This document shows, in pieces, positions 1 through 12,675 of a stretch of 12,967 nucleotides of DNA; the stretch's first letter is position 1; each line of letters starts with the position of its first letter. This stretch comes from Bacteroidota bacterium (GTDB lineage Bacteria; Bacteroidota; Bacteroidia; J057), in NCBI GenBank assembly GCA_036835375.1, contig DAITMB010000065.1, forward strand, positions 14,168 to 27,134. The letters run 5' to 3'. The notes beneath the pieces are model-generated. The model saw only the letters and a program-made list of their open reading frames with translations, ran no database searches and was not told where the DNA came from. Made by a program: the position numbers and the translations under genes.

Positions 1-93
1 CACGACACCGCCTTGTCACGAGGCCAGCAAGCCATCATTCTCGAATACGACCCTGTGCAAGATCAATATGTCGTGACTGCATTTGAAGTGTAA
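1..93 (+). CDS. 3' end (31 codons) of an upstream gene that is truncated by the window edge; product unknown
   Basis: Frame 1 is open from position 1 (HDTALSRGQQAIILEYDPVQDQYVVTAFEV) to the TAA at 91-93. Codon usage resembles the neighbouring genes. It is too short to assign a family. Confidence 0.3.
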   Translation, partial: HDTALSRGQQAIILEYDPVQDQYVVTAFEV

Positions 94-272: not shown

Positions 273-2441
273 ATGGACATCATTTCCACCATCGGCATCA
301 TCGTCGGAATCGTGCTGGCGAGCGTCGTCATCGGGTATGTGCTGCTGATTCGTCTTTTCTACCGAAAAATCAATCAGGGACAGGCGCTCGTGCGCACAGG
401 CTATGGCGAGACCAATGTCGCATTTAATGGGATGTGGGTCATTCCGCTGCTTCACAATGCCGAAATCATGGATATTTCGCTGAAGCAGGTCATCATCAAC
501 CGCGACGGCAAGGACGGTTTGATTTGCAGAGACAATCTCCGCGCAGATATCAAAGTGGCGTTTTATGTGCGGGTCAATCCCACGGTCGAAGATGTGAAAA
601 TGGTCGCTAACACCATCGGATGCGCCCGCGCTTCGGACCCCGAGCTGCTCAATGTTCTCTTCGAATCCAAATTTTCCGAGGCTCTCAAGACCGTCGGCAA
701 GCGCTTTGACTTTGTGGAGTTGTACGACGCGCGTGAAAAATTTCGCGACGAAATCATCAACCTCATTGGCCGCCAGCTCAATGGCTATTTTCTCGACGAT
801 GCTGCGATCGATTACTTGGAGCAAACTCCAGTAGAATTCCTCGACGAGGACAACATCCTTGACGCGGAAGGGATCAAAAAAATCCGGGACCTTACCGCCA
901 AGCAGATCACCCTCGCCAACAAGATTCAGCGAGAAAAGGAGAAGGAGATCAAGAAGCAAGACGTAGAGGCACGAGAAGCCATCCTAGAGCTGGAGAAGCA
1001 ACAGGCCGAAAAAGAAGAAGTGCAGCGTCGGGAGGTCTCCTCCGTCAAAGCCCGTGAAGTGGCGGAAACCCAGCGGGTACAAGAAGAAGAGCGCACCAAG
1101 TCGGACCGCGCCCGCATTTCCCGCGAACGAGATATCGAAGTGGAGGAGCAAAACAAGCTACGCGATGTGATTGCTGCCCGCAAGAACAAAGAGCGAACTG
1201 AGGCAATCGAGACCGAGAAGGTCGAGCGAGACAGGGCCTTGGAAGCCACTGAGCGGGAGAGGATTGTGGAGCTGGCCCGGATCGAAAAAGAAAAAGCCCT
1301 CGAAGAAGAGCGCAAAAACATCCAAGACGTGATTCGCGACCGCGTGGCCGTGGAGCGGGAAGTCGTCGAAGAGCAGGAAAAAATCAAAGATACTGAGGCA
1401 TTTAAAGGAGCTGAGCGCTTGAAGCGCGTCGCCATCCTGGCTGCAGAGCAGCGGGCAGAGGAAGCCTTGGTGGAGCGAATTAAGCGAGCCGAAGCGGAGA
1501 AGGATGCCGCAGTCTTGGACGCACAGCGCCGCATCACCGAAGCCAACGCAGGTCGTGAAGCCGCGGACAAGGAAGCTCAATCCAAAAAAATCATGGCGGA
1601 TGCCACTGCCGAAGAGCACGCATCCATCGGCCTGGCAGAAGCTCGCGTCTTGGAAGCCAAGGCCCAGGCACGGGAAAAAGAGGGACAAGCCACCGCCAAT
1701 GCGCTTGAGTTCCAGAACATCGCCGAGGCCAAAGGCATTGAGCTGAAAGGAGAAGCCCAAGCAGAGGCAGACCGCAAAAAAGGCCAGATGGAAGCCAAGA
1801 TTTATCTGGAAAAAGGCATGGCAGAGGCCCAGATTCTTGAAGCACGCGCGCTCGCCACCGAGAAAATGGGGACTTCTGAGGCCAAGGTGATTGAGCTCAA
1901 AGCTCAAGCGGATGCCAAAGGCGTACAAGCCAAGGCAGAGGCCATGAAGAAGCTCGATGGCGTGGGCAAAGACCACGAGGAGTTCAAGCTCCGCCTCGAA
2001 AAGGACAAAGAGGTGGAATTGGCAGGCCTGAACATACAGAAGGACATTGCCGCTGCGCAAGCTCAGGTACTTGCTGAGGCCCTGCGATCTGCCAAGATTG
2101 ACATTGTCGGCGGTGAACAACAATTCTTCGATCGCATCAGCGGAGCGATTCTCCAAGGCAAGTCCGTGGATCGCTTTCTCAACAACAGCGAGCACCTCAT
2201 TGATGTGAAAGAAGCTCTGCTCAACGGAGAAAACGGTCATTTGGGTCCTACTCTTCGCAGCTTCATGCAGCAATTTCGCTTCAGCAGCGAAGACCTCCGC
2301 AACCTCAGCGTCTCCGCCCTCATCGCCAAACTTCTCACTCAAGCTCAGGACGAGAAGCAGCGGTCGGTGCTAGACAGCCTTCAAGCCATGGCCCAATCCC
2401 TTGGATTGGCTGACCAAAAGGCGCACAAGTTCTTGCAATAG
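273..2441 (+). CDS. Membrane-anchored SPFH/band-7 flotillin-like protein (YqiK/FloT family) with an extended coiled coil
   Basis: ATG at 273 (MDIISTIGIIVGIVLASVVIGYVLLIRLFY) opens directly into a hydrophobic transmembrane helix. An SPFH core follows (QGQALVRTGYGETNVAFNGMWVIPLLHNAEIMDISLKQ...IKVAFYVRVNP), then about 400 aa of E/K/R/A/Q-rich coiled coil. The C-terminus has a flotillin-type tail (...LRSAKIDIVGGEQQFFDRISGAIL...). The ORF track extends in frame to 192, but 192-272 is a G-free pyrimidine-rich leader, so 273 is the preferred start. The stop is TAG at 2439-2441. Confidence 0.88.
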   Translation: MDIISTIGIIVGIVLASVVIGYVLLIRLFYRKINQGQALVRTGYGETNVAFNGMWVIPLLHNAEIMDISLKQVIINRDGKDGLICRDNLRADIKVAFYVRVNPTVEDVKMVANTIGCARASDPELLNVLFESKFSEALKTVGKRFDFVELYDAREKFRDEIINLIGRQLNGYFLDDAAIDYLEQTPVEFLDEDNILDAEGIKKIRDLTAKQITLANKIQREKEKEIKKQDVEAREAILELEKQQAEKEEVQRREVSSVKAREVAETQRVQEEERTKSDRARISRERDIEVEEQNKLRDVIAARKNKERTEAIETEKVERDRALEATERERIVELARIEKEKALEEERKNIQDVIRDRVAVEREVVEEQEKIKDTEAFKGAERLKRVAILAAEQRAEEALVERIKRAEAEKDAAVLDAQRRITEANAGREAADKEAQSKKIMADATAEEHASIGLAEARVLEAKAQAREKEGQATANALEFQNIAEAKGIELKGEAQAEADRKKGQMEAKIYLEKGMAEAQILEARALATEKMGTSEAKVIELKAQADAKGVQAKAEAMKKLDGVGKDHEEFKLRLEKDKEVELAGLNIQKDIAAAQAQVLAEALRSAKIDIVGGEQQFFDRISGAILQGKSVDRFLNNSEHLIDVKEALLNGENGHLGPTLRSFMQQFRFSSEDLRNLSVSALIAKLLTQAQDEKQRSVLDSLQAMAQSLGLADQKAHKFLQ

Positions 2442-2489: not shown

Positions 2490-5400
2490 ATGGAAGCCAG
2501 TACCTATGAGCTGATCCGGACCCGACTGGAAGCGCAGGCCCAAGACCTGCGCAGTCGGCTGGATCGGCTCCACCAGATCCGAAAGGATACCTTCGGGACC
2601 ATCGAGATGCAGCTGATCGCCACCGATCGCATCACTACCCAAAACCACTGCATCCCACGCGACATGGTCGCCATCGGACACCGGTTTTTGTTTGGGTACA
2701 ATGTCATGATGGGACTTCGTAGTGAAGTGTCGGTCAGCGATGTCTTCGCTGGGTATCGTTTTGAAGTCAGTGACCACAGCTTCCACGGGGAATCGCTGGA
2801 TTTTATGGCAGATTCGCGCTTCCAGGAGGACTTTCAGAATCTCTACAAATACTACAAAGACACTGTATTCGCCCGCTTTGCCATTCGTGGCCCTCATCTT
2901 TTCTTGGTGTTTCAGGTGGGAAAATCCTCCCACGAGATCAAGACCTTCAAATGGGCAATTCAGGACGACCAGTTACTTTACCTCGGCAATCGATTCGATC
3001 ACGAGTATCGATTTCCTGATCAGCATGAGTTTTCCTGGCAAAAGGCAGGTAGAGACCAGTATCGGCGCGGGATGCACCCACACGTCTCCATCCTTGATCG
3101 AGTCTTTGTCGAAACCGTGGGGGGGGATCTCACCATCAAGGTCGAGGACAACACCTCCACCGGGCTGGGCATTTTCAGCGAACCTGTCGAGGATCCTGAC
3201 CAAACCCTCGACGATGCTGAATATTTCTTTGCAGACTTGGGAAATATTCTCCTGCTGAAAATCAGACCTTACCAAGAAAAAACATTCCGCCACTTCATCT
3301 TCAACGAAAAGCTTCAGGAGATCCTTCGTGTGGATTCCCTTGCGACGAGCGCGATCCGTCTGCCCGACGAGCAGGGATTGATTTTTTCGAATGGATATTA
3401 TCTCCACACGGGCGAAAAGAAAATCTTCGATCAGGCTCATGAAGGGCTGCGGTTTGAGCGTCGTGTCGTTTCCCCCAACGGTGAAGACATCCTGTATGTG
3501 TTTTACCAGGCAGCGAGTGGCCAGTATGTGCTCTTGCCTTACAACTTGGTGAAAATGGACGTGGACAGCCCGATTCATTGTGGGGGATTCACCATTTTCC
3601 CCAACGGCGAATTGTGCTATTTCCGGGCGGAAGAACAACCAGGACGGCACCATGTGATTCAAATTTGGCGGACGCCTTATGGTACCGGAGTATCCGAGGT
3701 GGCCCAGAATTCAGGATCCTGGATCGCCAAAGTCGGCAACAAAGACCTCGTACGCGGCATGGCCGAGTGTCAAGGCTTGCTCGTCTTACTAGGAAAAGAA
3801 GAGCCTTACGCAGACTTCTATGTCGATCTGGTAAAAAAAACTGGAGACATCATTGACAGCTACTTTTGGATTGCAAAAGAAGAGGCTGCCAATCTCGCCT
3901 TTGCGCTGCGCAACATCCGTGAAACGGCTGTCTCGGCCATCGACGAATACGAAAAAGTACAGGTCCTCCGCGCCAATACCCGCATGCGCACCGAGGAAGT
4001 GACGGTGGCAAGCCAGCAACTAGCTGAAAAAATTCGCCGCCGAAAGCCGCAACAAATCGTCGATTATGTGGAATATCTGGGCGAACTGCGGAGACTGCGG
4101 GGCGACATCATCGGCCTGCGAGATCTGAGATTTGCTGACGAATCCAGCATTGAGGCGCTTGAGGCCCAAGTCATTGCCCAGACCGAATCCCTCGGCGAAG
4201 CCACGGTCACATTCTTGCTCAGCGAGCAATCCCTCCAGCCCTACCAAGTGCGTGTTGATTCCATCAGCGAGGCCATCGGCACGATCTCCCGTGTGACAGA
4301 AGCTAATGAAGTGGCGCAAGACATAGAGGACAGCGCCAAGCAACTGGAACTGCTCATCGACATTGTGAGCAACCTCAAGATAGAAGATGCGACCCAAACT
4401 ACGCGGATCATTGAGCACATCTCTGTGGTGTTTTCCCGGCTCAATGGTTTACGTGCATCGCTTCGCACGCGGCGGCAGGCGTTGTCCGGGATGGAAGCTA
4501 AGGCTTCTTTTTTTGCCCAGATCAAACTCTTAGATCAAGCTCAGATCAATTATCTCGACCTCTGTGACACCCCGCAAAAGACGGAGGACTACCTCTCCCG
4601 CCTCATGGTACAGGTCGAAGAACTGGAAGGGAAGTTTGCCGAATTCGAAGAGTTTCTGCGCTTGCTTTCCGACAGACGCGAAGATCTCTACGCCGCCTTC
4701 GAGACCCGCCGCCTTCAATTGGTGGAACAAAGAAACAAACGTAGCAGCGCTCTGCTAGCCACTGGTACGCGCATTCTCAAGGGCATTCAGCATCGTGCGG
4801 CGCAGATGGAAGAGCTTCAGGAGATTCATGCCTACTTCGCAGCTGACCTCCTCGTGGAAAAGGTGAGGGGCATCATCGCCGAACTCACGCAGATGGAGGA
4901 CAGTGGCAAGGCAGGCGATCTTCAGGCGCAGCTAAAATCGGCGCGCGAAGAGGCCATTCGCCAGTCAAAAGACCGAAGGGATCTCTATGTCGATGGCGAT
5001 CACACCATTCGGATGGGCAGACACAGTTTTGCGGTCAATCGCCAGGCTCTAGACCTCACCGTTGTGCCCCGTGAGGGAAGCATGTATCTCCACATCACGG
5101 GGACTCATTTTTATGAAAAAATCACCGACGAAGTCTTCCTCCGCACCCAGGCTGTGTGGGGCATGTCGCTGCCATCAGAGAGTGCTGACGTGTATCGAGC
5201 TGAGTTTCTGGCGTGGCAAATGATGCAGGATTTGTCTTTGTCCGCGGCAATCCGACCTCTGCTTCCTGAAGTACAGTCCTTTATGGCGACGCGCTATGAG
5301 GAAGGCTATCTCAAGGGCATTCACGATCATGATGCCAGCGTGCTGTTGGGACATTTGCTAGAACTTCGGGAAGGGCTTGGCTTCCTACAATATAGCCCCG

Positions 5401-7307
5401 AGGCGCGTGCCTGTGCGATCGTTGCATGGTGGAGCGGTTGGGAAGAGGAGGCCAAAAATGCTTTGTCTCTGCGAATCCAGAGTGCAAAACTGGTCTTGCG
5501 GGCCTTCCCCGGGACTTCTCGATTTGAAGCGCTGACTCAATCGTTACATTCCCACCTTGCACAATTCTGTCAAGCATCCGGTGCATTTGATCAGGGCGTG
5601 GCCGCTGAAGCAGCAGCGTTTTTGTTTGCCACCTTACAAGACGAAGGATCCCTGACGGTCTCTGGAGAGGCGGTTGATTTACAAGAAGCTTTTGGGCAAT
5701 ATCTCCGTCAAAACGAGCTCAGCGAAGATTATGAAAAATCTCTGGCAGAATGGCAATCATTGCCACTGGCCCGATTCGACTTGATTCGCACATGGCTGGC
5801 AGCATTTGTCGAGGCAGCAGAAAAGGATACTCCAGCATCCCTCGTGCTGGAAGCAGCTGCTTTGATGCTTCTCGGTACACACGTTCCCACCCAGCGGCTG
5901 GATCTATCTGCACGGCGCACCGTGACAGATCTGCGAGGGGAGCACGGGGTAATCGAAGAGGGAGGACGCTACGAATTGAGTTATCATCGCTTTCAGGCGA
6001 AGCTCGGGCAGTTTGTCCAAGACATTCGTCCGCAGTATTTTCAGATGGCGCAGCTCAAGCACGACCTGATTGCGCGGGAGCGGGAAAGCCTTCGCTTGGA
6101 GAGTTTTCAGCCGAAAATCATGTCCTCTTTTGTTCGGAACAAACTCATCGACCAGTACTACCTGCCCCTTGTGGGTGACAACCTCGCGAAGCAGATCGGG
6201 ACTGTCGGAGAAAACATGCGCACCGACCGCCAGGGCTTGTTACTGCTGATTTCACCGCCGGGCTACGGCAAGACCACGCTCATGGAGTATGTCGCCAACC
6301 GGATGGGGTTGATTTTCATGAAAATCAACGGACCCGCCATTGGCCATGAAGTCACTTCACTTGATCCTGCGAGCGCGCCCCATGCAAGTGCTCGCGAAGA
6401 ACTTCACAAGCTCGCCCTTTCCCTGGAAATGGGCGACAACGTGATGCTCTACCTCGACGACATTCAGCACCTTCACCCAGAATTTCTCCAAAAATTCATC
6501 TCCCTCACCGATGCCCAGCGCAAAATCGAAGGGGTGTATAAAGGTCGGTCTCGCACCTATGACCTTCGTGGAAGGCGGGTGGCCGTGGTCATGGCAGGCA
6601 ATCCCTACACCGAGTCGGGGGATAAATTTCGAATCCCGGACATGCTTGCCAACCGAGCGGACATTTACAATTTGGGGGACATCATCGGTGCGCAGGAGGG
6701 GCTGTTTCGGCTCAGCTATTTGGAAAATGCCCTCACTTCCCATCCATTGCTCACCCGGCTTGTGACCGCATCCAGTTCCGATCAGCACATCATTTTCCGC
6801 GCCGCGGAAAAGGGCGAAGAGCAGGGCCTTGCGCTGGAAGGGAACTTGTCTCCGGAAGAAGTGCAGGATATGCTCGCGGTGTTGCGCAAGATGATCGCTG
6901 TGCGTGAGGTGGTGCTGAAGGTGAATCATGCCTACATCGCTTCCGCTGGGCAGCAGGAGGCATATCGGGTAGAGCCTCCGTTTTTGCTCCAAGGGTCATA
7001 TCGCAATATGGCGCGGTTGACTGAAAAGCTGTCTCCATTGATGAACGACCAGGAGTTGCAAGCGCTTCTCCTCGCACACTACACGAGCGAAGCACAGACC
7101 TTAAGCGCGGGTACAGAGGCCAATCTCCTCCGTTTTCGGCGGATGATCGGGGTGGCTACCCCAGAAGAAAATCAGCGCTGGGAAGACATTCTTCGGATGT
7201 TTGGAGAGCAGAAGCAGCTCAGCATGGATCGATTAGGACAATTGGTGCAGGAAATGAAGTCCTTCACGCAGGGGCTTGCAGCAATCAGCGATGCGTTGAA
7301 AAAGTAG
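2490..7307 (+). CDS. Giant (1605 aa) multidomain protein: N-terminal beta-rich region, long coiled-coil/helical middle, C-terminal AAA_5 (MoxR/dynein-related) AAA+ ATPase domain and lid
   Basis: Single uninterrupted ORF. Walker A is LLLISPPGYGKTTLMEYVA (GYGKTT at nt 6261-6278). Walker B is VMLYLDD (DD at 6456-6461), followed by IQHLHPEFLQKF, which aligns to MoxR 'DEINRAPPKTQSALL'. Sensor 1 and the arginine region are VAVVMAGNPYTESGDKFRIPDMLANRADIY, aligning to MoxR '..[22 protein letters not shown]'. Residues about 460-900 are heptad-like and charged. No protease, VWA (DxSxS) or nuclease motif was recognised. The gene starts 48 bp after the flotillin stop, so the two are probably co-transcribed. 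Confidence 0.85.
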   Translation: MEASTYELIRTRLEAQAQDLRSRLDRLHQIRKDTFGTIEMQLIATDRITTQNHCIPRDMVAIGHRFLFGYNVMMGLRSEVSVSDVFAGYRFEVSDHSFHGESLDFMADSRFQEDFQNLYKYYKDTVFARFAIRGPHLFLVFQVGKSSHEIKTFKWAIQDDQLLYLGNRFDHEYRFPDQHEFSWQKAGRDQYRRGMHPHVSILDRVFVETVGGDLTIKVEDNTSTGLGIFSEPVEDPDQTLDDAEYFFADLGNILLLKIRPYQEKTFRHFIFNEKLQEILRVDSLATSAIRLPDEQGLIFSNGYYLHTGEKKIFDQAHEGLRFERRVVSPNGEDILYVFYQAASGQYVLLPYNLVKMDVDSPIHCGGFTIFPNGELCYFRAEEQPGRHHVIQIWRTPYGTGVSEVAQNSGSWIAKVGNKDLVRGMAECQGLLVLLGKEEPYADFYVDLVKKTGDIIDSYFWIAKEEAANLAFALRNIRETAVSAIDEYEKVQVLRANTRMRTEEVTVASQQLAEKIRRRKPQQIVDYVEYLGELRRLRGDIIGLRDLRFADESSIEALEAQVIAQTESLGEATVTFLLSEQSLQPYQVRVDSISEAIGTISRVTEANEVAQDIEDSAKQLELLIDIVSNLKIEDATQTTRIIEHISVVFSRLNGLRASLRTRRQALSGMEAKASFFAQIKLLDQAQINYLDLCDTPQKTEDYLSRLMVQVEELEGKFAEFEEFLRLLSDRREDLYAAFETRRLQLVEQRNKRSSALLATGTRILKGIQHRAAQMEELQEIHAYFAADLLVEKVRGIIAELTQMEDSGKAGDLQAQLKSAREEAIRQSKDRRDLYVDGDHTIRMGRHSFAVNRQALDLTVVPREGSMYLHITGTHFYEKITDEVFLRTQAVWGMSLPSESADVYRAEFLAWQMMQDLSLSAAIRPLLPEVQSFMATRYEEGYLKGIHDHDASVLLGHLLELREGLGFLQYSPEARACAIVAWWSGWEEEAKNALSLRIQSAKLVLRAFPGTSRFEALTQSLHSHLAQFCQASGAFDQGVAAEAAAFLFATLQDEGSLTVSGEAVDLQEAFGQYLRQNELSEDYEKSLAEWQSLPLARFDLIRTWLAAFVEAAEKDTPASLVLEAAALMLLGTHVPTQRLDLSARRTVTDLRGEHGVIEEGGRYELSYHRFQAKLGQFVQDIRPQYFQMAQLKHDLIARERESLRLESFQPKIMSSFVRNKLIDQYYLPLVGDNLAKQIGTVGENMRTDRQGLLLLISPPGYGKTTLMEYVANRMGLIFMKINGPAIGHEVTSLDPASAPHASAREELHKLALSLEMGDNVMLYLDDIQHLHPEFLQKFISLTDAQRKIEGVYKGRSRTYDLRGRRVAVVMAGNPYTESGDKFRIPDMLANRADIYNLGDIIGAQEGLFRLSYLENALTSHPLLTRLVTASSSDQHIIFRAAEKGEEQGLALEGNLSPEEVQDMLAVLRKMIAVREVVLKVNHAYIASAGQQEAYRVEPPFLLQGSYRNMARLTEKLSPLMNDQELQALLLAHYTSEAQTLSAGTEANLLRFRRMIGVATPEENQRWEDILRMFGEQKQLSMDRLGQLVQEMKSFTQGLAAISDALKK

Positions 7308-7507: not shown

Positions 7508-8584
7508 ATGGCTCTTTACTCTGTGATCATCGGCTCAGGCAGCTACTTGCCTACTCGCATCGTCACCAACGAAGATTTTCTGGCTACTTCATTTTTAGAC
7601 CAAGATGGACAAGGATTTCCTAAGACGGCGGAGGAAATCATCCAACGGTTCGAGGAGATCACTACCATCAAGGCGCGGAGATACGTGGACGACGACCAAC
7701 TTTGTTCAGATATCGCGACGCTGGCTGCTCAACAAGCCATCGCCGATGCTGGCATTGACATGGAGACCATCGGTCACATCATTGTGGCCCATAATTGGGG
7801 CGACATCAAGGTTGACAACAAGCGATCGGATCAGGTGCCATCCATTGCTTCCCGGGTGAAATATAATCTCGGGATGGTGAATCCAGATTGTGTCCCCTAC
7901 GACCTGCCGTTCGGCTGTCCGGGATGGGTGCAGGGGATGATTCACGCCAATTACTTTCTCAAGTCAGGAGACGGCACGCGCGCGCTGGTGATTGGGGCAG
8001 AGACCCTTTCTCGCGTGATAGATCCACATGATCGCGACCAAATGATCTATGCTGATGGGGCTGGGGCGGTGATCCTCGAAGCGCGCGAATCAGATAAGCC
8101 GATCGGGATTGTGGCACACAAGACGCGCTCCGATACCAAGGACCACGCATATTTGTTGTGGCAGGCGAGGTCATTTCAGCCAGACCGCCCCGCAGATGAG
8201 TTGTTCCTGAAGATGAATGGCCATTCTCTCTATAAGTACGCCCTCGCGCACGTGCCTGAGGTGGTCAAGACAACCATCGATATGGCAGGGCTTCAACTGA
8301 AAGACATCAGCAAGGTGCTCATCCATCAAGCCAATGCGAAGATGGACGAGGCCATTCTTACCCGCCTGTTTCGGCTATATGGGGAGACTTCGGTGCCAAA
8401 AGCTCTGATGCCGCTCACGGTGGGGTGGCTGGGAAATAGTTCTGTAGCGACGGTCCCTACTTTGTATGACCTCATCATGAAGGGTCAGCTCCAGGATCAG
8501 CACATTCAGGCGGGAGATTGGATCATCTTTGCGTCGGTAGGTGCCGGGATGAACATCAATTCGATTGTGTACCGGATGCCCTAG
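7508..8584 (+). CDS. 3-oxoacyl-ACP synthase III (FabH/KAS III) family condensing enzyme
   Basis: N-terminus LYSVIIGSGSYLPTRIVTNEDF matches FabH (IIGTGSYLP). The putative catalytic Cys is in PFGCPGWVQGM. IYADGAGAVIL corresponds to FabH IFGDGAGAAVL. The HQAN His and the GNSSVATVP Asn complete a Cys-His-Asn triad. Length is 358 aa. No fab or acp neighbours are present. Confidence 0.82.
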   Translation: MALYSVIIGSGSYLPTRIVTNEDFLATSFLDQDGQGFPKTAEEIIQRFEEITTIKARRYVDDDQLCSDIATLAAQQAIADAGIDMETIGHIIVAHNWGDIKVDNKRSDQVPSIASRVKYNLGMVNPDCVPYDLPFGCPGWVQGMIHANYFLKSGDGTRALVIGAETLSRVIDPHDRDQMIYADGAGAVILEARESDKPIGIVAHKTRSDTKDHAYLLWQARSFQPDRPADELFLKMNGHSLYKYALAHVPEVVKTTIDMAGLQLKDISKVLIHQANAKMDEAILTRLFRLYGETSVPKALMPLTVGWLGNSSVATVPTLYDLIMKGQLQDQHIQAGDWIIFASVGAGMNINSIVYRMP

Positions 8585-9186
8585 GGCTCCATGCCCTTTC
8601 GCTGTTCGCGATACCAGACATTGTATGCTTCGATGATGCGCGGCAGATCCGTCGGCTGAAAGAGGTCGTTGCGGATGGCTTGCGCCAGCTCTGTGTATTC
8701 GTCGAGGGCATCGGCAATGCGCTTCCACTTGAAGTTGTAGCTCACTTCGAAGAGCTTGCCATCGGGTTTTTCCAGCAAATCAAAAAAAGCAGGCCCTTTC
8801 TGTAAAGTGAACTCGGATCTGCGGGTATAAAACCGAAAGAGCTTCACAGGTCCATCAATCTTTCGCTGTAAAAACATCACCGTATCCGACAACAATCCCG
8901 CATAGAGAAAAGGCCGGGGTTTGCTCTCGTAATGGCGATCCTGATAGCCAAAGGCGGAGATTCTCTCGGGGGTGTAGCGACTTTTTACGGCATATTCGTC
9001 ATAAAAAACGATGTGTCGCTGATCCTTGAAGTCATTGCCGCTGCGCACATATCCCCAGGTCGTGTCATTATATTGGGAGACGATGTAGCCACGAGGGTAC
9101 TTGGAAGCTTGGCCAGAAGACGACTGCGGAGTGAAGACGCAGAAGCTCAGGAGCAGGAAAATGGGCAGATATCGGTCCGAATTCAT
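8581..9186 (-). CDS. Hypothetical protein with an N-terminal signal peptide (secreted, periplasmic or lipoprotein-like); function unknown
   Basis: Minus-strand ORF 8581..9231. The preferred start is the internal Met at 9186 (MNSDRYLPIFLLLSFCVFTPQSSSGQ...), which gives a signal-peptide-like N-terminus. The body is rich in Y/F/R/K/D, and no family was recognised. The upstream alternative start at 9231 is possible. Its stop overlaps the FabH-like stop at the CTAG 8581-8584. Confidence 0.55.
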   Translation of the reverse strand: MNSDRYLPIFLLLSFCVFTPQSSSGQASKYPRGYIVSQYNDTTWGYVRSGNDFKDQRHIVFYDEYAVKSRYTPERISAFGYQDRHYESKPRPFLYAGLLSDTVMFLQRKIDGPVKLFRFYTRRSEFTLQKGPAFFDLLEKPDGKLFEVSYNFKWKRIADALDEYTELAQAIRNDLFQPTDLPRIIEAYNVWYREQRKGMEP

Positions 9187-9343
9187 AAGATGAATAATAC
9201 AGCTGCTACAAACATCGGGAATGATTCTCATCCATTTGCGGGCCTTTTCTGTGTTTTTGTGGAGGAAACTTTCATTTAGCTATTAGGGCTTTGACTTCGA
9301 ATGTCGGATCTCTTTTTGTCCCATGCGGGGAGCTGTTCTTCCT

Positions 9344-9375
9344 ATTGCAGGTGGAGGGGTACCTTCGTAAATTTG
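9344..9375 (+). promoter_or_regulatory. Candidate Bacteroidota-type promoter for the 9440..10048 gene
   Basis: TAAATTTG at 9368-9375 is an exact TAnnTTTG, with ATTG at 9344-9347 20 nt upstream. The ATG is 65 nt downstream. The element lies in the divergent intergenic region 9187-9439. Confidence 0.3.
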
Positions 9376-9439
9376 AACCATAGATTCCGAAGATTTTCTC
9401 TTTCATTTTTCCTCCTCCCAATTGCCTTAACAGTCTCAC

Positions 9440-10048
9440 ATGGCCAGACGTCCGCTCAAAAAGCTCGAAAAGATTGTTCTCATAGGATTTGGTTTTTTTG
9501 CCTTGATGATGTTTGGTCTTTGGGTCCTAGACAAGCAGCCCAACCGAGCGTATTTTCTGCCCGAAGGCTTCGATGGCTGGGTGACCATTCGCTACGCTGT
9601 ACCAGGTGCTGATCCGATTCCCAGGGTCAATGGCGTGCTGCAGTATGTGATTTCCGAGAGTGGCTACATGGAAACGAGCGACCCCCTTGTAGTAGGCTGG
9701 CGCAGAGATGAGTTTTTCTGGAAAAGAAATGATGGCTCCATCGAAAAAATAGCCCCCTATGTCAAGCTCGACGATGAATATTATCTCCACGTTCATCAGC
9801 ACGCTTACTTTGCCAAAGACTGGACTTCAATCTTACACAGCATGACCGTGGGCAAAGATACCGTCATGCCAGATCAGACGAAGATTTCTAAAACATCTGA
9901 GTCGGATGTGAAGTATGTGACTGGGAAGAAAACGCTGGAATATTTTTACTTCAGTGATGTGCCTCAGTCCATCATGTTCACTCCTCCCAAAAATCCACAA
10001 ATGGAAGGGCTGGAGTCCACAGAAGATCGCTCCATTGCGCAGGATTGA
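9440..10048 (+). CDS. Hypothetical single-pass membrane-anchored protein; function unknown
   Basis: 202-aa ORF. The N-terminus MARRPLKKLEKIVLIGFGFFALMMFGLWVL has a basic stretch followed by a transmembrane helix. The remainder is soluble (...FLPEGFDGWVTIRYAVPGADPIPRVNG...). A TAAATTTG box lies 65 nt upstream. No recognisable family. Confidence 0.55.
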   Translation: MARRPLKKLEKIVLIGFGFFALMMFGLWVLDKQPNRAYFLPEGFDGWVTIRYAVPGADPIPRVNGVLQYVISESGYMETSDPLVVGWRRDEFFWKRNDGSIEKIAPYVKLDDEYYLHVHQHAYFAKDWTSILHSMTVGKDTVMPDQTKISKTSESDVKYVTGKKTLEYFYFSDVPQSIMFTPPKNPQMEGLESTEDRSIAQD

Positions 10049-10137
10049 TCCGGTCTCATTGCTGATATTCGTCCTCTTGTTGTCCAGATTCTTGTTTTCA
10101 GGTCGTTTTGTTCGGCTCACCTTCATCGTGTCTCCCT

Positions 10138-11325
10138 ATGCAGCATGTGGCTCCTCGCATTGACTTCAGCAATACAGAATTGGCGTTTCAGGCGCAGTCA
10201 CCTGCAAAACTCAGGCGTACGTACTGGCTGTTTCGCATGATCGACTCCCCCATCTTGACCAAGATCGGGCCCAAATTGCTTACATTAGGGTTTCGGATGG
10301 GATTGCCTGTCGAAGGACTGGTGAAAAGCACGCTATTTGACTTGTTTGCGGGTGGTGAATCTTTGCCCGAGACGGTACCACGTTCGGAGCATCTGATGAG
10401 CTATGGGGTGCACACCATCCTAGATTACTCCGTCGAAGGAGAGAAATCCGAGGCCGGATTTGAAGCGACCAAGCGCGAAATCTTAGCTACGCTCGACCAT
10501 GGCGCTGCACAGGAGGCCGTGGCCTTCAGTGCGTGCAAGCTCACCGGGCTGGGGTCTTTTGACATTATGGCGAAAGTTCAGGCAGGGGAAAACCTGAGTC
10601 AGGCGGAGCAGGCATCTTTTGAGCGGCTCAAAGGGCGCATTCGCGAGATTGCCCAAGCAGCCTATGACCGCCAAGTGCCGATTTTTTTGGATGCCGAGGA
10701 AACCTGGATTCAGGATGTGATCGACGCTCAGGCGGAAGAGCTCATGGCAACCTATAACCGGGAAAAACCCATCATTTGGACCACCATCCAGCACTATCGG
10801 CACGACCGATTAACCTATTTGAAATCGCTGATTGATCGGAGCAAATCGCAGGGCTACATCTTAGCAGTGAAGCTGGTGCGTGGCGCTTACCTCGAAAAAG
10901 AGAATCGCCGGGCGGAGGAAAAGGGATATCCTACCCCAATGCAAGCGACCAAAGCCGCGACGGATCGCGACTACGATGCGGGGCTGGCGCTTTGTGTCGA
11001 TCACATGGATCACGTCGCTGTGTGTGCAGGCACTCACAACGAGCGCTCCAGTGCCTTTTTGGCCGAACTTCTCCAGCAAAAAGGTATTCCGGCAAATCAC
11101 CCCCATGTATGGTTCGCTCAATTGCTGGGCATGTCGGACCACATTTCCTTCAACCTCGGCCACGAGGGCTACAATGCCGCGAAATATTTGCCCTATGGTC
11201 CAGTTAAGTCAGTGATGCCGTACCTGATTCGTCGGGCGGAAGAAAACACATCGGTAGCGGGTCAGGCCAGCCGTGAGGTAGAATTATTGCGTCAGGAAGT
11301 GAAGCGGCGCAGTGCGCAGCGGTAG
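10138..11325 (+). CDS. putA: Proline dehydrogenase (monofunctional PRODH, PutA catalytic-domain family)
   Basis: From the Met at 10138 the N-terminus reads MQHVAPRIDFSNTELAFQAQSPAKLRRTYWLFRM, typical of Bacteroidota monofunctional PRODH. Conserved motifs are AVKLVRGAYLEKE and VCAGTHNERS. The ORF track begins at 10108, but the alignment-like N-terminus favours 10138. Confidence 0.82.
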   Translation: MQHVAPRIDFSNTELAFQAQSPAKLRRTYWLFRMIDSPILTKIGPKLLTLGFRMGLPVEGLVKSTLFDLFAGGESLPETVPRSEHLMSYGVHTILDYSVEGEKSEAGFEATKREILATLDHGAAQEAVAFSACKLTGLGSFDIMAKVQAGENLSQAEQASFERLKGRIREIAQAAYDRQVPIFLDAEETWIQDVIDAQAEELMATYNREKPIIWTTIQHYRHDRLTYLKSLIDRSKSQGYILAVKLVRGAYLEKENRRAEEKGYPTPMQATKAATDRDYDAGLALCVDHMDHVAVCAGTHNERSSAFLAELLQQKGIPANHPHVWFAQLLGMSDHISFNLGHEGYNAAKYLPYGPVKSVMPYLIRRAEENTSVAGQASREVELLRQEVKRRSAQR

Positions 11326-11371
11326 GAAGAGCTGCAGTCAATGTAAAGATTGACTAGTAAAGGAATAACAC

Positions 11372-11402
11372 ATTGGATATTCGTAAAAAGCTCCTACCTT
11401 TG
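11372..11402 (+). promoter_or_regulatory. Candidate Bacteroidota sigma-A-type promoter for rpsF-rpsR-rplI
   Basis: TACCTTTG at 11395-11402 fits the TAnnTTTG -7 consensus, 22 nt upstream of the rpsF ATG. ATTG sits at 11372-11375, 19 nt upstream, as a partial -33 TTTG. Confidence 0.35.
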
Positions 11403-11423
11403 TAGCCCAATTTAACCAGTACT

Positions 11424-11813
11424 ATGGACATTCAGCCAAAGAAGTTCAAACAGGAGTACGAAACTACGTTCATCCTCCTTCCCGATATGCCTGAGGGTGA
11501 GCATCAACAGGCAGTTGACAAATTTGTCAAAATGATTCAAGACGCCGGTGGCACGATGCGCAACATCGAGCACTGGGGCATTCGCCAGTTGGCCTACCCG
11601 ATTCAGCGGAAGACCAGCGGATATTATGCTTTCTTAGAATTCGAAGCTGACCCTGAGTTCATCTCCAAGCTAGACCAGGCATATCGCTACGACGAGCAGG
11701 TGATCCGTTTTTTGACGGTGAAGCTGGAAAAGCACGCATTTGAGTTCAATCAAAAGCGTCGCGAGCAAGGCTTTGGTCTCCGCAAGGAAGCCAGGGTACA
11801 AAACATCAAATAG
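11424..11813 (+). CDS. rpsF: 30S ribosomal protein S6
   Basis: [64 protein letters not shown] matches the S6 fold signature (..WG.R.LAYPI..). It is followed by rpsR. Confidence 0.95.
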
Positions 11814-11898
11814 TGAGAGGAGGGAAACAGGCACTGGTGATCGCCGGGCTATAAGTTCCCTTCACACCCATTCTCCAATTTTTTTCAAAGATCCACAC

Positions 11899-12171
11899 AT
11901 GGCCAAGTCTCCCGTAATTGGACCTACCGCGGTCAATAAGATCCGCACCCAGCACCAAGACAAGAAGTACTGCCGCTTTAAAAAAGCTGGCATTAAGTAC
12001 ATTGACTACAAAGATGGTGACTTCCTTCTCAAGTTCGTGAACGAGCAGGGCAAGGTACTTCCTCGCCGCATCACTGGCACCAGCCTGAAATTTCAGCGTA
12101 GGCTTGCCGTAGCGATCAAGCGTGCACGCCACCTCGCATTGTTGCCATTCGTTACCGATGGCTTACGTTAA
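11899..12171 (+). CDS. rpsR: 30S ribosomal protein S18
   Basis: From the ATG at 11899: [85 protein letters not shown]. This is the canonical S18 of the Bacteroidota type. The ORF track starts at 11740, inside rpsF, which is an artefact of the open frame. Confidence 0.93.
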
Positions 12172-12228
12172 TCTGGGCTGATACATCACTTTGCGGCGCG
12201 AGCCGCTCCACGTTCAACTGAGAGAACA

Positions 12229-12675
12229 ATGGAAATCATTCTGAAACAACCGATTCGCAATCTCGGCGACAAAGACGACGTGGTGAAGGTAAAGCCCGGA
12301 TTTGCGCGCAACTACCTGATCCCTCAAGGTCTGGCCGTCATGGCTACTGCCTCTGCTAAGAAGGCTTTGGCAGATACCAAGCGCCAAGCATCTCACAAAG
12401 TAGAATTTGTGAAACAGCAGGCCACAGAAGAAGCTGCCAAGCTCACCGCCGCCAAAATCATCATCGAGACCCTCGCTGGAAATGATGGAAAGCTTTTTGG
12501 CTCTGTCACTACGTTGATGATCGCCACCAAGCTCAAAGAGCAAGGCTTTGACATCGACCGTAAGTCTATCACCATTGAAGATATTCGCTCAACTGGCGAA
12601 TACACTGCGGTGATTCACCTCCACAAAGAGGTCAAAGCAGAAGTGCCCGTAGAAGTGGTGAGCCGCGAGAACTAA
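12229..12675 (+). CDS. rplI: 50S ribosomal protein L9
   Basis: MEIILKQPIRNLGDKDDVVKVKPGFARNYLIPQGLAV...DGKLFGSVTT...TGEYTAVIHLHKEVKAEV matches the L9 N- and C-domain signatures (..V.NLG..GD.V.VK.GYARNFL.PQG.A....GKLFGS). Confidence 0.93.
   Translation: MEIILKQPIRNLGDKDDVVKVKPGFARNYLIPQGLAVMATASAKKALADTKRQASHKVEFVKQQATEEAAKLTAAKIIIETLAGNDGKLFGSVTTLMIATKLKEQGFDIDRKSITIEDIRSTGEYTAVIHLHKEVKAEVPVEVVSREN

Follow-up and report, generated by a model that had tools for sequence, protein, structure and literature searches.

An Asp-Asp Walker B box marks the C-terminal AAA+ module of a widespread, uncharacterized family of giant DUF3686 proteins

The giant gene and the motifs of its AAA+ module

The stretch of DNA analyzed here (the window; 12,967 nucleotides [nt], contig DAITMB010000065.1 of a Bacteroidota bacterium, positions 14,168 to 27,134 of the forward strand) encodes, in its longest open reading frame (ORF), a giant protein whose single C-terminal AAA+ module reads Asp-Asp where the Walker B box of related ATPases reads Asp-Glu. 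An earlier note, made from the sequence alone, had pointed to this substitution in what it called an AAA_5 domain, and proposed a slow or switch-like ATPase or a distinct subfamily. Alignments across the family, a structural model, and comparisons with known ATPases identify a previously undescribed, family-defining Walker B variant in an AAA+ family that is annotated but uncharacterized.

Within the 1,605-amino-acid (aa) protein, Pfam places DUF3686 (PF12458) at aa 19-459 (E 1.6e-180) and DUF7902 (PF25472) at aa 581-663 (E 5e-26), the latter within a long stretch that is helical or coiled coil. The AAA+ module spans aa ~1240-1540, with helices after it, and about 1,200 residues of β-propeller-like and coiled-coil character are joined to it. 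For the DUF3686 N-terminal domain, which is β-propeller-like, no close solved relative was found, and the whole protein has no NCBIfam match above any cutoff. The combination of PF12458, PF25472, and a C-terminal AAA domain in one protein of ~1,600 aa is common to the 120 homologs described below, and the AAA+ part is the best-conserved region (60-72% identity, versus 49-63% for the whole protein). NCBI and JGI records name the homologs "DNA repair ATPase" or "MoxR-like ATPase." No DNA repair domain, neighboring gene, or paper supporting the first of these names was found, and it is unsupported.

The features of the gene and its AAA+ module are as follows. Positions come from motif mapping, family alignment, and an AlphaFold2 model, and counts refer to the 273-row alignment described in the next section.

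2490..7307, plus strand: giant gene, 1,605-aa protein (from translation)
6252..6278, plus strand: Walker A (P-loop), SPPGYGKTT, with K1261 (Lys in 262/262) and T1262, after β1 in the model; its core GYGKTT is aa 1258-1263, nt 6261-6278
6321..6380, plus strand: end of β2 (KINGP, N1280 invariant) and the near-invariant loop GHxVTSLDPxxAP, from the family alignment and the model
6441..6473, plus strand: Walker B strand VMLYLD-D and then I-Q-H-L, from the alignments, with β3 at domain residues 127-132; VMLYLDD is aa 1318-1324, nt 6441-6461, and DIQHL is aa 1324-1328, nt 6459-6473
6522..6563, plus strand: predicted pre-sensor-1 β-hairpin KIEGVYKGRSRTYD, aa 1345-1358, with strands at domain residues 154-159 and 162-167 between α3 and β4 of the model
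6579..6605, plus strand: β4 and sensor 1, VAVVMAG-N-P, aa 1364-1372 (N1371, Asn in 269/271), with β4 at domain residues 173-179 and then N180
6630..6668, plus strand: Box VII-like segment RIPDMLANRADIY, aa 1381-1393 (R1389, Arg in 270/271), with a helix at 193-196 and β5 at 199-202 in the model
6993..7004, plus strand: invariant G-S-Y-R, aa 1502-1505 (G311, S312, Y313, R314 in domain numbering), at the start of lid helix 313-321 in the model

The model covers aa 1192-1605 and was built from 37 sequences, with a mean predicted local distance difference test score of 80.9 and a predicted template modeling score of 0.74. Its core runs in the order β1, P-loop, β2 (IFMKIN), an irregular conserved loop, α2, and β3 (VMLYLD), which the second Asp directly follows. 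There follow α3, the β-hairpin, β4 (VAVVMAG), N1371, a short helix (PDML), R1389, β5 (ADIY), and the helical lid. The strings named in the earlier note (GYGKTT, VMLYLDD, DIQHL, VAVVMAGNP, and RIPDMLANRADIY) all lie within 6261-6680, and its assignments of Walker A, Walker B, sensor 1, and a segment like "LPEAQLDRF" fit both this model and alignments with RavA, RuvB, and DnaA.

The register of the Walker B box was addressed by aligning a 247-sequence family alignment to single Escherichia coli proteins with hhalign. The family segment LYLDDIQHLHPEF fell on LFIDEIHRLSPVV of RuvB with a probability of 95.8% and on VFLDEIWKAGPAIL of RavA with a probability of 20.6%, and the family Walker B fell on LLIDDIQF of DnaA with a probability of 60%. 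Because these three alignments agree with the model, D1323 is placed at the predicted Mg2+ ligand position and D1324 (nt 6459-6461, codon GAC) at the predicted position of the catalytic Glu. When the PDB was searched by sequence, neither the AAA+ segment nor a profile of the whole family aligned beyond the Walker A region, where VCP and RuvB matched, so these matches do not settle register or clade. Such limited matches, and AAA Pfam matches of only 25-30 bits, are what could be cited for a misread Walker B with the true Glu elsewhere. The model, with VMLYLD in β3 and D-D at its end, and the three concurring alignments argue against a shifted register, a concern raised with the original observation, and we find this explanation scarcely credible, together with its companion that DD is a sequencing error or strain mutation.

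Conservation of the DDIQH box

More than 4,399 homologs were found in a word-indexed search, and the best 120 were taken. These were 49-63% identical to the window protein and came from Bacteroidota, Planctomycetota, Acidobacteriota (Sulfidibacter), and one eukaryotic data set; every one of them contained DD[IV]QH. An exhaustive HMMER search with aa 1192-1605 gave 853 clusters at E<=1e-3 and 330 at E<=1e-30, from which the best 150 representatives were used. The resulting 273-row HMMER alignment combined the query, the best 120 homologs, and the 150 representatives of 50%-identity clusters. Overall, members of the DUF3686-AAA+ family occur in at least 596 species genomes and form 853 sequence clusters. 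One full-length homolog of 1,711 aa (P0111; 50% identity) belongs to a eukaryotic protein set (eukprot), where it could be the product of horizontal transfer or bacterial contamination of the assembly.

In the 273-row alignment, D1323 was conserved in 269/270 sequences. Position 1324 was Asp in 267/270, with Asn, Ala, and Gly once each and Glu in none, and the residues that follow were similarly fixed (I1325 in 265, Q1326 in 268, and H1327 in 267). The pattern is thus conserved rather than sporadic, and the reading of a distinct subfamily holds, DD, Q, and H being family-wide. Homologs with a canonical DE, which would have pointed to an error or a strain-specific mutation, did not appear here or in metagenomes: M-x-Y-x-D-E-I-Q-H was searched for in 241 million metagenome records, and the 12 matches were all out-of-frame noise or the unrelated ORF GGHMMYIDEIQHHKL, with no family member among them. 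NCBI also holds a record identical to the window protein (P0001). Given this identical record, the 267 of 270 homologs, and the lack of any D-E metagenome variant, DD is a constant feature that characterizes a widespread family and is neither a sequencing error nor a strain-specific mutation.

Codon usage adds a second view of the same position. The D1324 codon was GAT in 44 and GAC in 40 of 84 family loci and never GAA or GAG, in a locus set that is biased towards DD because one scan pattern contained DDIQ; for this reason the genome contig loci were not used for judging conservation of DD. The free exchange of GAT and GAC, with no GAA or GAG, suggests that the site has mutated often and never fixed Glu. 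With Asp specifically selected and Glu never seen, the site appears to be retuned around the shorter carboxylate, probably together with Q1326 and H1327.

The earlier note had described three substitutions of catalytic or sensing positions relative to the MoxR string DEINRA. The change from Glu to Asp does fall at the catalytic position. The changes from Asn to Gln and from Arg to His were overstated as such, since these two residues of DEINRA vary between the reference proteins (DEIWKA in RavA, DEIHRL in RuvB, and IFIIDEINRAN in McrB) and, to our knowledge, are not established as catalytic or sensing residues. Within the family, Q1326 and H1327 vary no more than the catalytic residues do.

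The few members that depart from DDIQH are also informative. One reads NGIEH and has SAHS at sensor 1 and QY for NR (P0265), one reads DDIQY with AGSLD (P0264), and one reads DNIQQ with GSYH, in which the Arg of the candidate sensor 2 is His (P0245). Loss of several motifs at once in these three or four deviants indicates that DD belongs to a single coselected catalytic set, and the three sequences look like degenerate, nonhydrolyzing paralogs or decaying copies of the same module. They bear directly on whether the whole family might be a nucleotide-binding-only pseudo-ATPase that serves structure or oligomerization, as in dynein AAA2 or some ORC sites. Loss of the canonical catalytic Glu would fit such a role, as would the very large size of the protein, whose long coiled coil could act as a scaffold. 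Degenerate sites, however, usually lose several motifs, whereas here the Walker A Lys, the two Asp residues, sensor 1, the candidate Arg finger, and GSYR are each at least 98% conserved across phyla, and the rare members without DD, which lose other motifs too, are the actual degenerate forms. A pseudo-ATPase is therefore highly unlikely. Conservation of these elements is nearly total and argues instead for hydrolysis that is functional and under selection, not for a decaying site.

Relationship to known AAA+ groups and nucleotide hydrolysis

The nearest solved folds to the AAA+ model are the MoxR-type ATPases CbbQ (6l1q) and NorQ (9qh4), followed by dynein and midasin. The module has the Walker A motif, the polar residue at sensor 1, the Box VII Arg, and the helical lid after β5 that are features of the AAA+ superfamily. 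Of the hhhhDE box with its catalytic Glu, the position and first Asp are present and the second residue is Asp. The same DD occurs in the accepted members DnaA and E1 and so is no bar to AAA+ membership. It does separate the module from the MoxR family (CbbQ, NorQ, and E. coli RavA), dynein, midasin, and McrB, which have DE(INRA) where DDIQH is found here.

Fold-level support for the MoxR/AAA_5 group comes from the pre-sensor-1 β-hairpin, predicted here as in that group, and from the "GNP" sensor 1, the "P..L.NR" Box VII, and the helices before GSYR. By sequence, the half from Walker A to Walker B is more like RuvB and classic AAA proteins: RuvB is its best sequence-level match, in the hhalign comparison above, and phmmer matched the P-loop and β2 ("INGPEI") to p97/VCP. 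Pfam matches to aa 1241-1374 are weak and overlapping, with PF00004 at 29.9 bits, AAA_22 at 26.4, AAA_5 (PF07728) at 25.2, and RuvB_N at 23.4. Of the 120 homologs, nearly all have a listed PF00004 match and about half a PF07728 match. The name AAA_5 suits the MoxR-like fold and is only marginal by sequence, where PF00004 scores higher and hhalign favors RuvB over RavA. The module also does not show the combination expected of the DnaA/initiator clade (a two-helix motif in the stretch from Walker A to Walker B and no pre-sensor-1 hairpin). A McrB-like GTPase was considered and dropped, since E. coli McrB has "NTAD" after sensor 1 where PYTESG is found here; the NTAD string is taken to confer GTP specificity in McrB.

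The explanation favored here, with moderate confidence, is a hydrolysis-competent AAA+ site that uses Asp as the catalytic carboxylate, in a distinct and conserved subfamily. Several observations weigh against it. The AAA_5 match clears a cutoff of 22 bits and scores below that to PF00004. Members of the MoxR/AAA_5 group have a helix-2 β-hairpin and a VWA/MIDAS partner; the model predicts, in place of the helix-2 β-hairpin, a conserved irregular loop of 14 residues (domain residues 94-107), and no VWA or MIDAS domain was found in the giant protein, in the other ORFs of the window, or in the neighborhoods of two distant homologs. The roles given to D1324, Q1326, H1327, and R1505 follow from their positions in alignments and the model, and the catalytic residue may instead be provided by another region, for example the end of β2 or the conserved GH loop. 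Literature searches found no paper mentioning the DUF3686 family; they also yielded nothing useful on a link between flotillin and the "DNA repair ATPase" or on Asp-for-Glu Walker B boxes. Taken together, the marginal profile match, the first half resembling RuvB and VCP, and the lack of a helix-2 hairpin and VWA domain point to a separate subfamily whose nearest fold is MoxR/dynein-like.

The loop that replaces the hairpin is near-invariant. GHxVTSLDPxxAP (aa 1285-1297, window 6342-6380) is irregular, lies between β2 and α2, and in the AlphaFold model is flanked by the helical segments H90-93 and H108-123 (domain numbering). Invariant residues of β2 and the loop, in the same numbering, are N89, G90, P91, G94, H95, D101, and P102. 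Its position is that of pore loop 1 or the helix-2 insert in other AAA+ proteins, so it is a candidate element that may contact a substrate or partner. No aromatic-hydrophobic-Gly pore loop motif is visible between β2 and α2.

The absence of such a motif there can be counted in favor of an intrinsically slow ATPase, that is, a nucleotide-state switch like DnaA and not a cycling motor, in which ATP would permit assembly or the binding of a partner and an external trigger would set off hydrolysis. Weak ATPase activity is common among MoxR-type relatives, which counts on the same side. In addition, E. coli DnaA, a slow and regulated ATPase, has the same D-D-I-Q string: its Walker B, LLIDDIQF (D235-D236), shares an identical core with the family, Asp-235 having been assigned to Walker B (PMC4661922), and its behavior as a slow ATP switch with intrinsic and partner-stimulated hydrolysis has been reviewed (PMC5742627). 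The papillomavirus E1 helicase provides the opposite case. Its Walker B, ALVDDAT (chain 2gxa_A), has the same hhhhDD in a ring-forming AAA+ fold (SF3), yet E1 is a processive DNA helicase and an active hexameric motor, from a different clade and domain context; it has no sequence similarity to the family beyond the P-loop and is cited only as an active motor that bears DD. Because DnaA and E1 share DD and differ in activity, slowness does not follow from DD, and the proposal in the earlier note that Asp at this position implies a slow ATPase or switch is unsupported by DD alone. A slow, gated switch is the main rival to the favored explanation but the less likely of the two.

Under the favored explanation of a hydrolysis-competent Asp site, the segment would form the nucleotide site of the single AAA+ module that serves as the C-terminal ATPase of DUF3686 proteins, with hhhhD-D-I-Q-H as the Walker B box of the subfamily and a fold closest to those of MoxR, dynein, and midasin. 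D1323 would hold Mg2+, and D1324 would act in place of the usual Glu as the water-activating carboxylate. N1371 would serve as sensor 1. R1389 (nt 6654-6656), which appears to correspond in position to the Arg of RavA LYDRM, McrB LRRRF, and RuvB LRDRF, is a candidate arginine finger that would reach in from the neighboring subunit of a ring. R1505, in GSYR, is a candidate and probable sensor 2, an assignment that leans on what we take to be a likeness to the MoxR "GxSxR" motif. Our leading guess is genuine hydrolysis under the gating control of a partner or substrate.

Gene neighborhood and implications for the family

The giant gene is closely preceded by two genes that recur with it in other genomes, and it is followed by chromosomal genes of ordinary kinds.

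1..93, plus strand: 3' end of a small gene that is probably YqiJ/NfeD-like (27 aa match the C terminus of L003:4129-4794, from Pontibacter, at 41% identity)
273..2441, plus strand: SPFH/Band 7 gene, 722 aa, membrane-anchored, with a flotillin-like coiled coil (Band_7 at 45.2 bits, aa 1-277)
7508-8584, downstream: FabH-like KAS III
9440-10048, downstream: DUF6843
10108-11325, downstream: proline dehydrogenase
11424-12675, downstream: rpsF-rpsR-rplI

The SPFH gene ends 48 nt before the giant gene. Its full-length product has no Pfam match, and only the N-terminal 277 aa match Band_7; the long coiled coil, rich in Glu, Lys, and Ala, apparently suppresses the score for the whole protein, so that similar SPFH genes may routinely go unannotated. 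The gene upstream of the giant homolog in Sulfidibacter encodes a protein 51% identical to the SPFH protein of the window, and the one in Pontibacter a protein 67% identical. For the small gene, the Pontibacter homolog has a weak YqiJ_N match (E 0.0084).

Among the at least 596 species genomes found to encode the giant protein, 55 fetched loci had enough upstream sequence for comparison. The SPFH gene lies directly upstream of the giant gene, on the same strand, in 51/55 of these loci, and the small gene precedes the SPFH gene in 42/55. The loci come from Bacteroidota, Planctomycetota, Verrucomicrobiota, Kiritimatiellota, and Desulfobacterales; the arrangement spans at least five phyla and also occurs in Acidobacteriota (Sulfidibacter). 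Four loci with ample upstream sequence (L008, L010, L056, and L060) have no SPFH gene upstream, so the linkage is strong but not obligatory; two of the four are the closest Bacteroidia relatives of the window AAA+ module, at 68-70% identity. In Pontibacter (L003:7191-7871) and a few Bacteroidota metagenome-assembled genomes (the loci with it also include L011, L012, L013, and L059), an extra gene of ~226 aa without a Pfam match sits between the SPFH and giant genes; it is absent from the 48-nt gap in the window. No literature was found on a module of small gene, SPFH gene, and DUF3686-AAA+ gene. Downstream, window positions 7508-12675 gave no sign of a mobile element or defense island, PADLOC found no defense system match, and a scan for promoters and terminators was uninformative.

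Coupling of an SPFH/Band 7 gene to an AAA+ gene recalls HflK/C and FtsH, an SPFH-AAA+ partnership. Unlike FtsH, the giant protein has no protease domain or predicted membrane anchor and belongs to a different AAA+ clade, and the likeness is one of gene linkage only. A further proposal joins the site to its neighborhood: DDIQH would be a reengineered site in which the shorter carboxylate of D1324, acting with Q1326 and H1327, leaves hydrolysis in need of an outside trigger, and the giant protein would be the nucleotide-gated part of a three-gene membrane machine made of a YqiJ/NfeD-like protein, an SPFH protein, and the ATPase. This is speculative and rather unlikely; if true, the machine would amount to a previously undescribed HflK/C-FtsH counterpart that lacks a protease. 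The tight linkage to a flotillin-like gene in any case points to a membrane-associated role.

For annotation, the pattern GYGKT[TS]...hhhhDDIQH...MAGNP...PDML.NR.D.Y...GSYR provides a diagnostic signature of the subfamily. AAA+ mechanisms are usually framed around the Walker B Glu, and mutants in which it is changed from Glu to Gln are a standard tool to trap the ATP state; for these proteins, the trap strategy needs an Asp-to-Asn form. Having fixed Asp at this position while keeping the other catalytic elements, the family is a natural experiment on how carboxylate length relates to hydrolysis.

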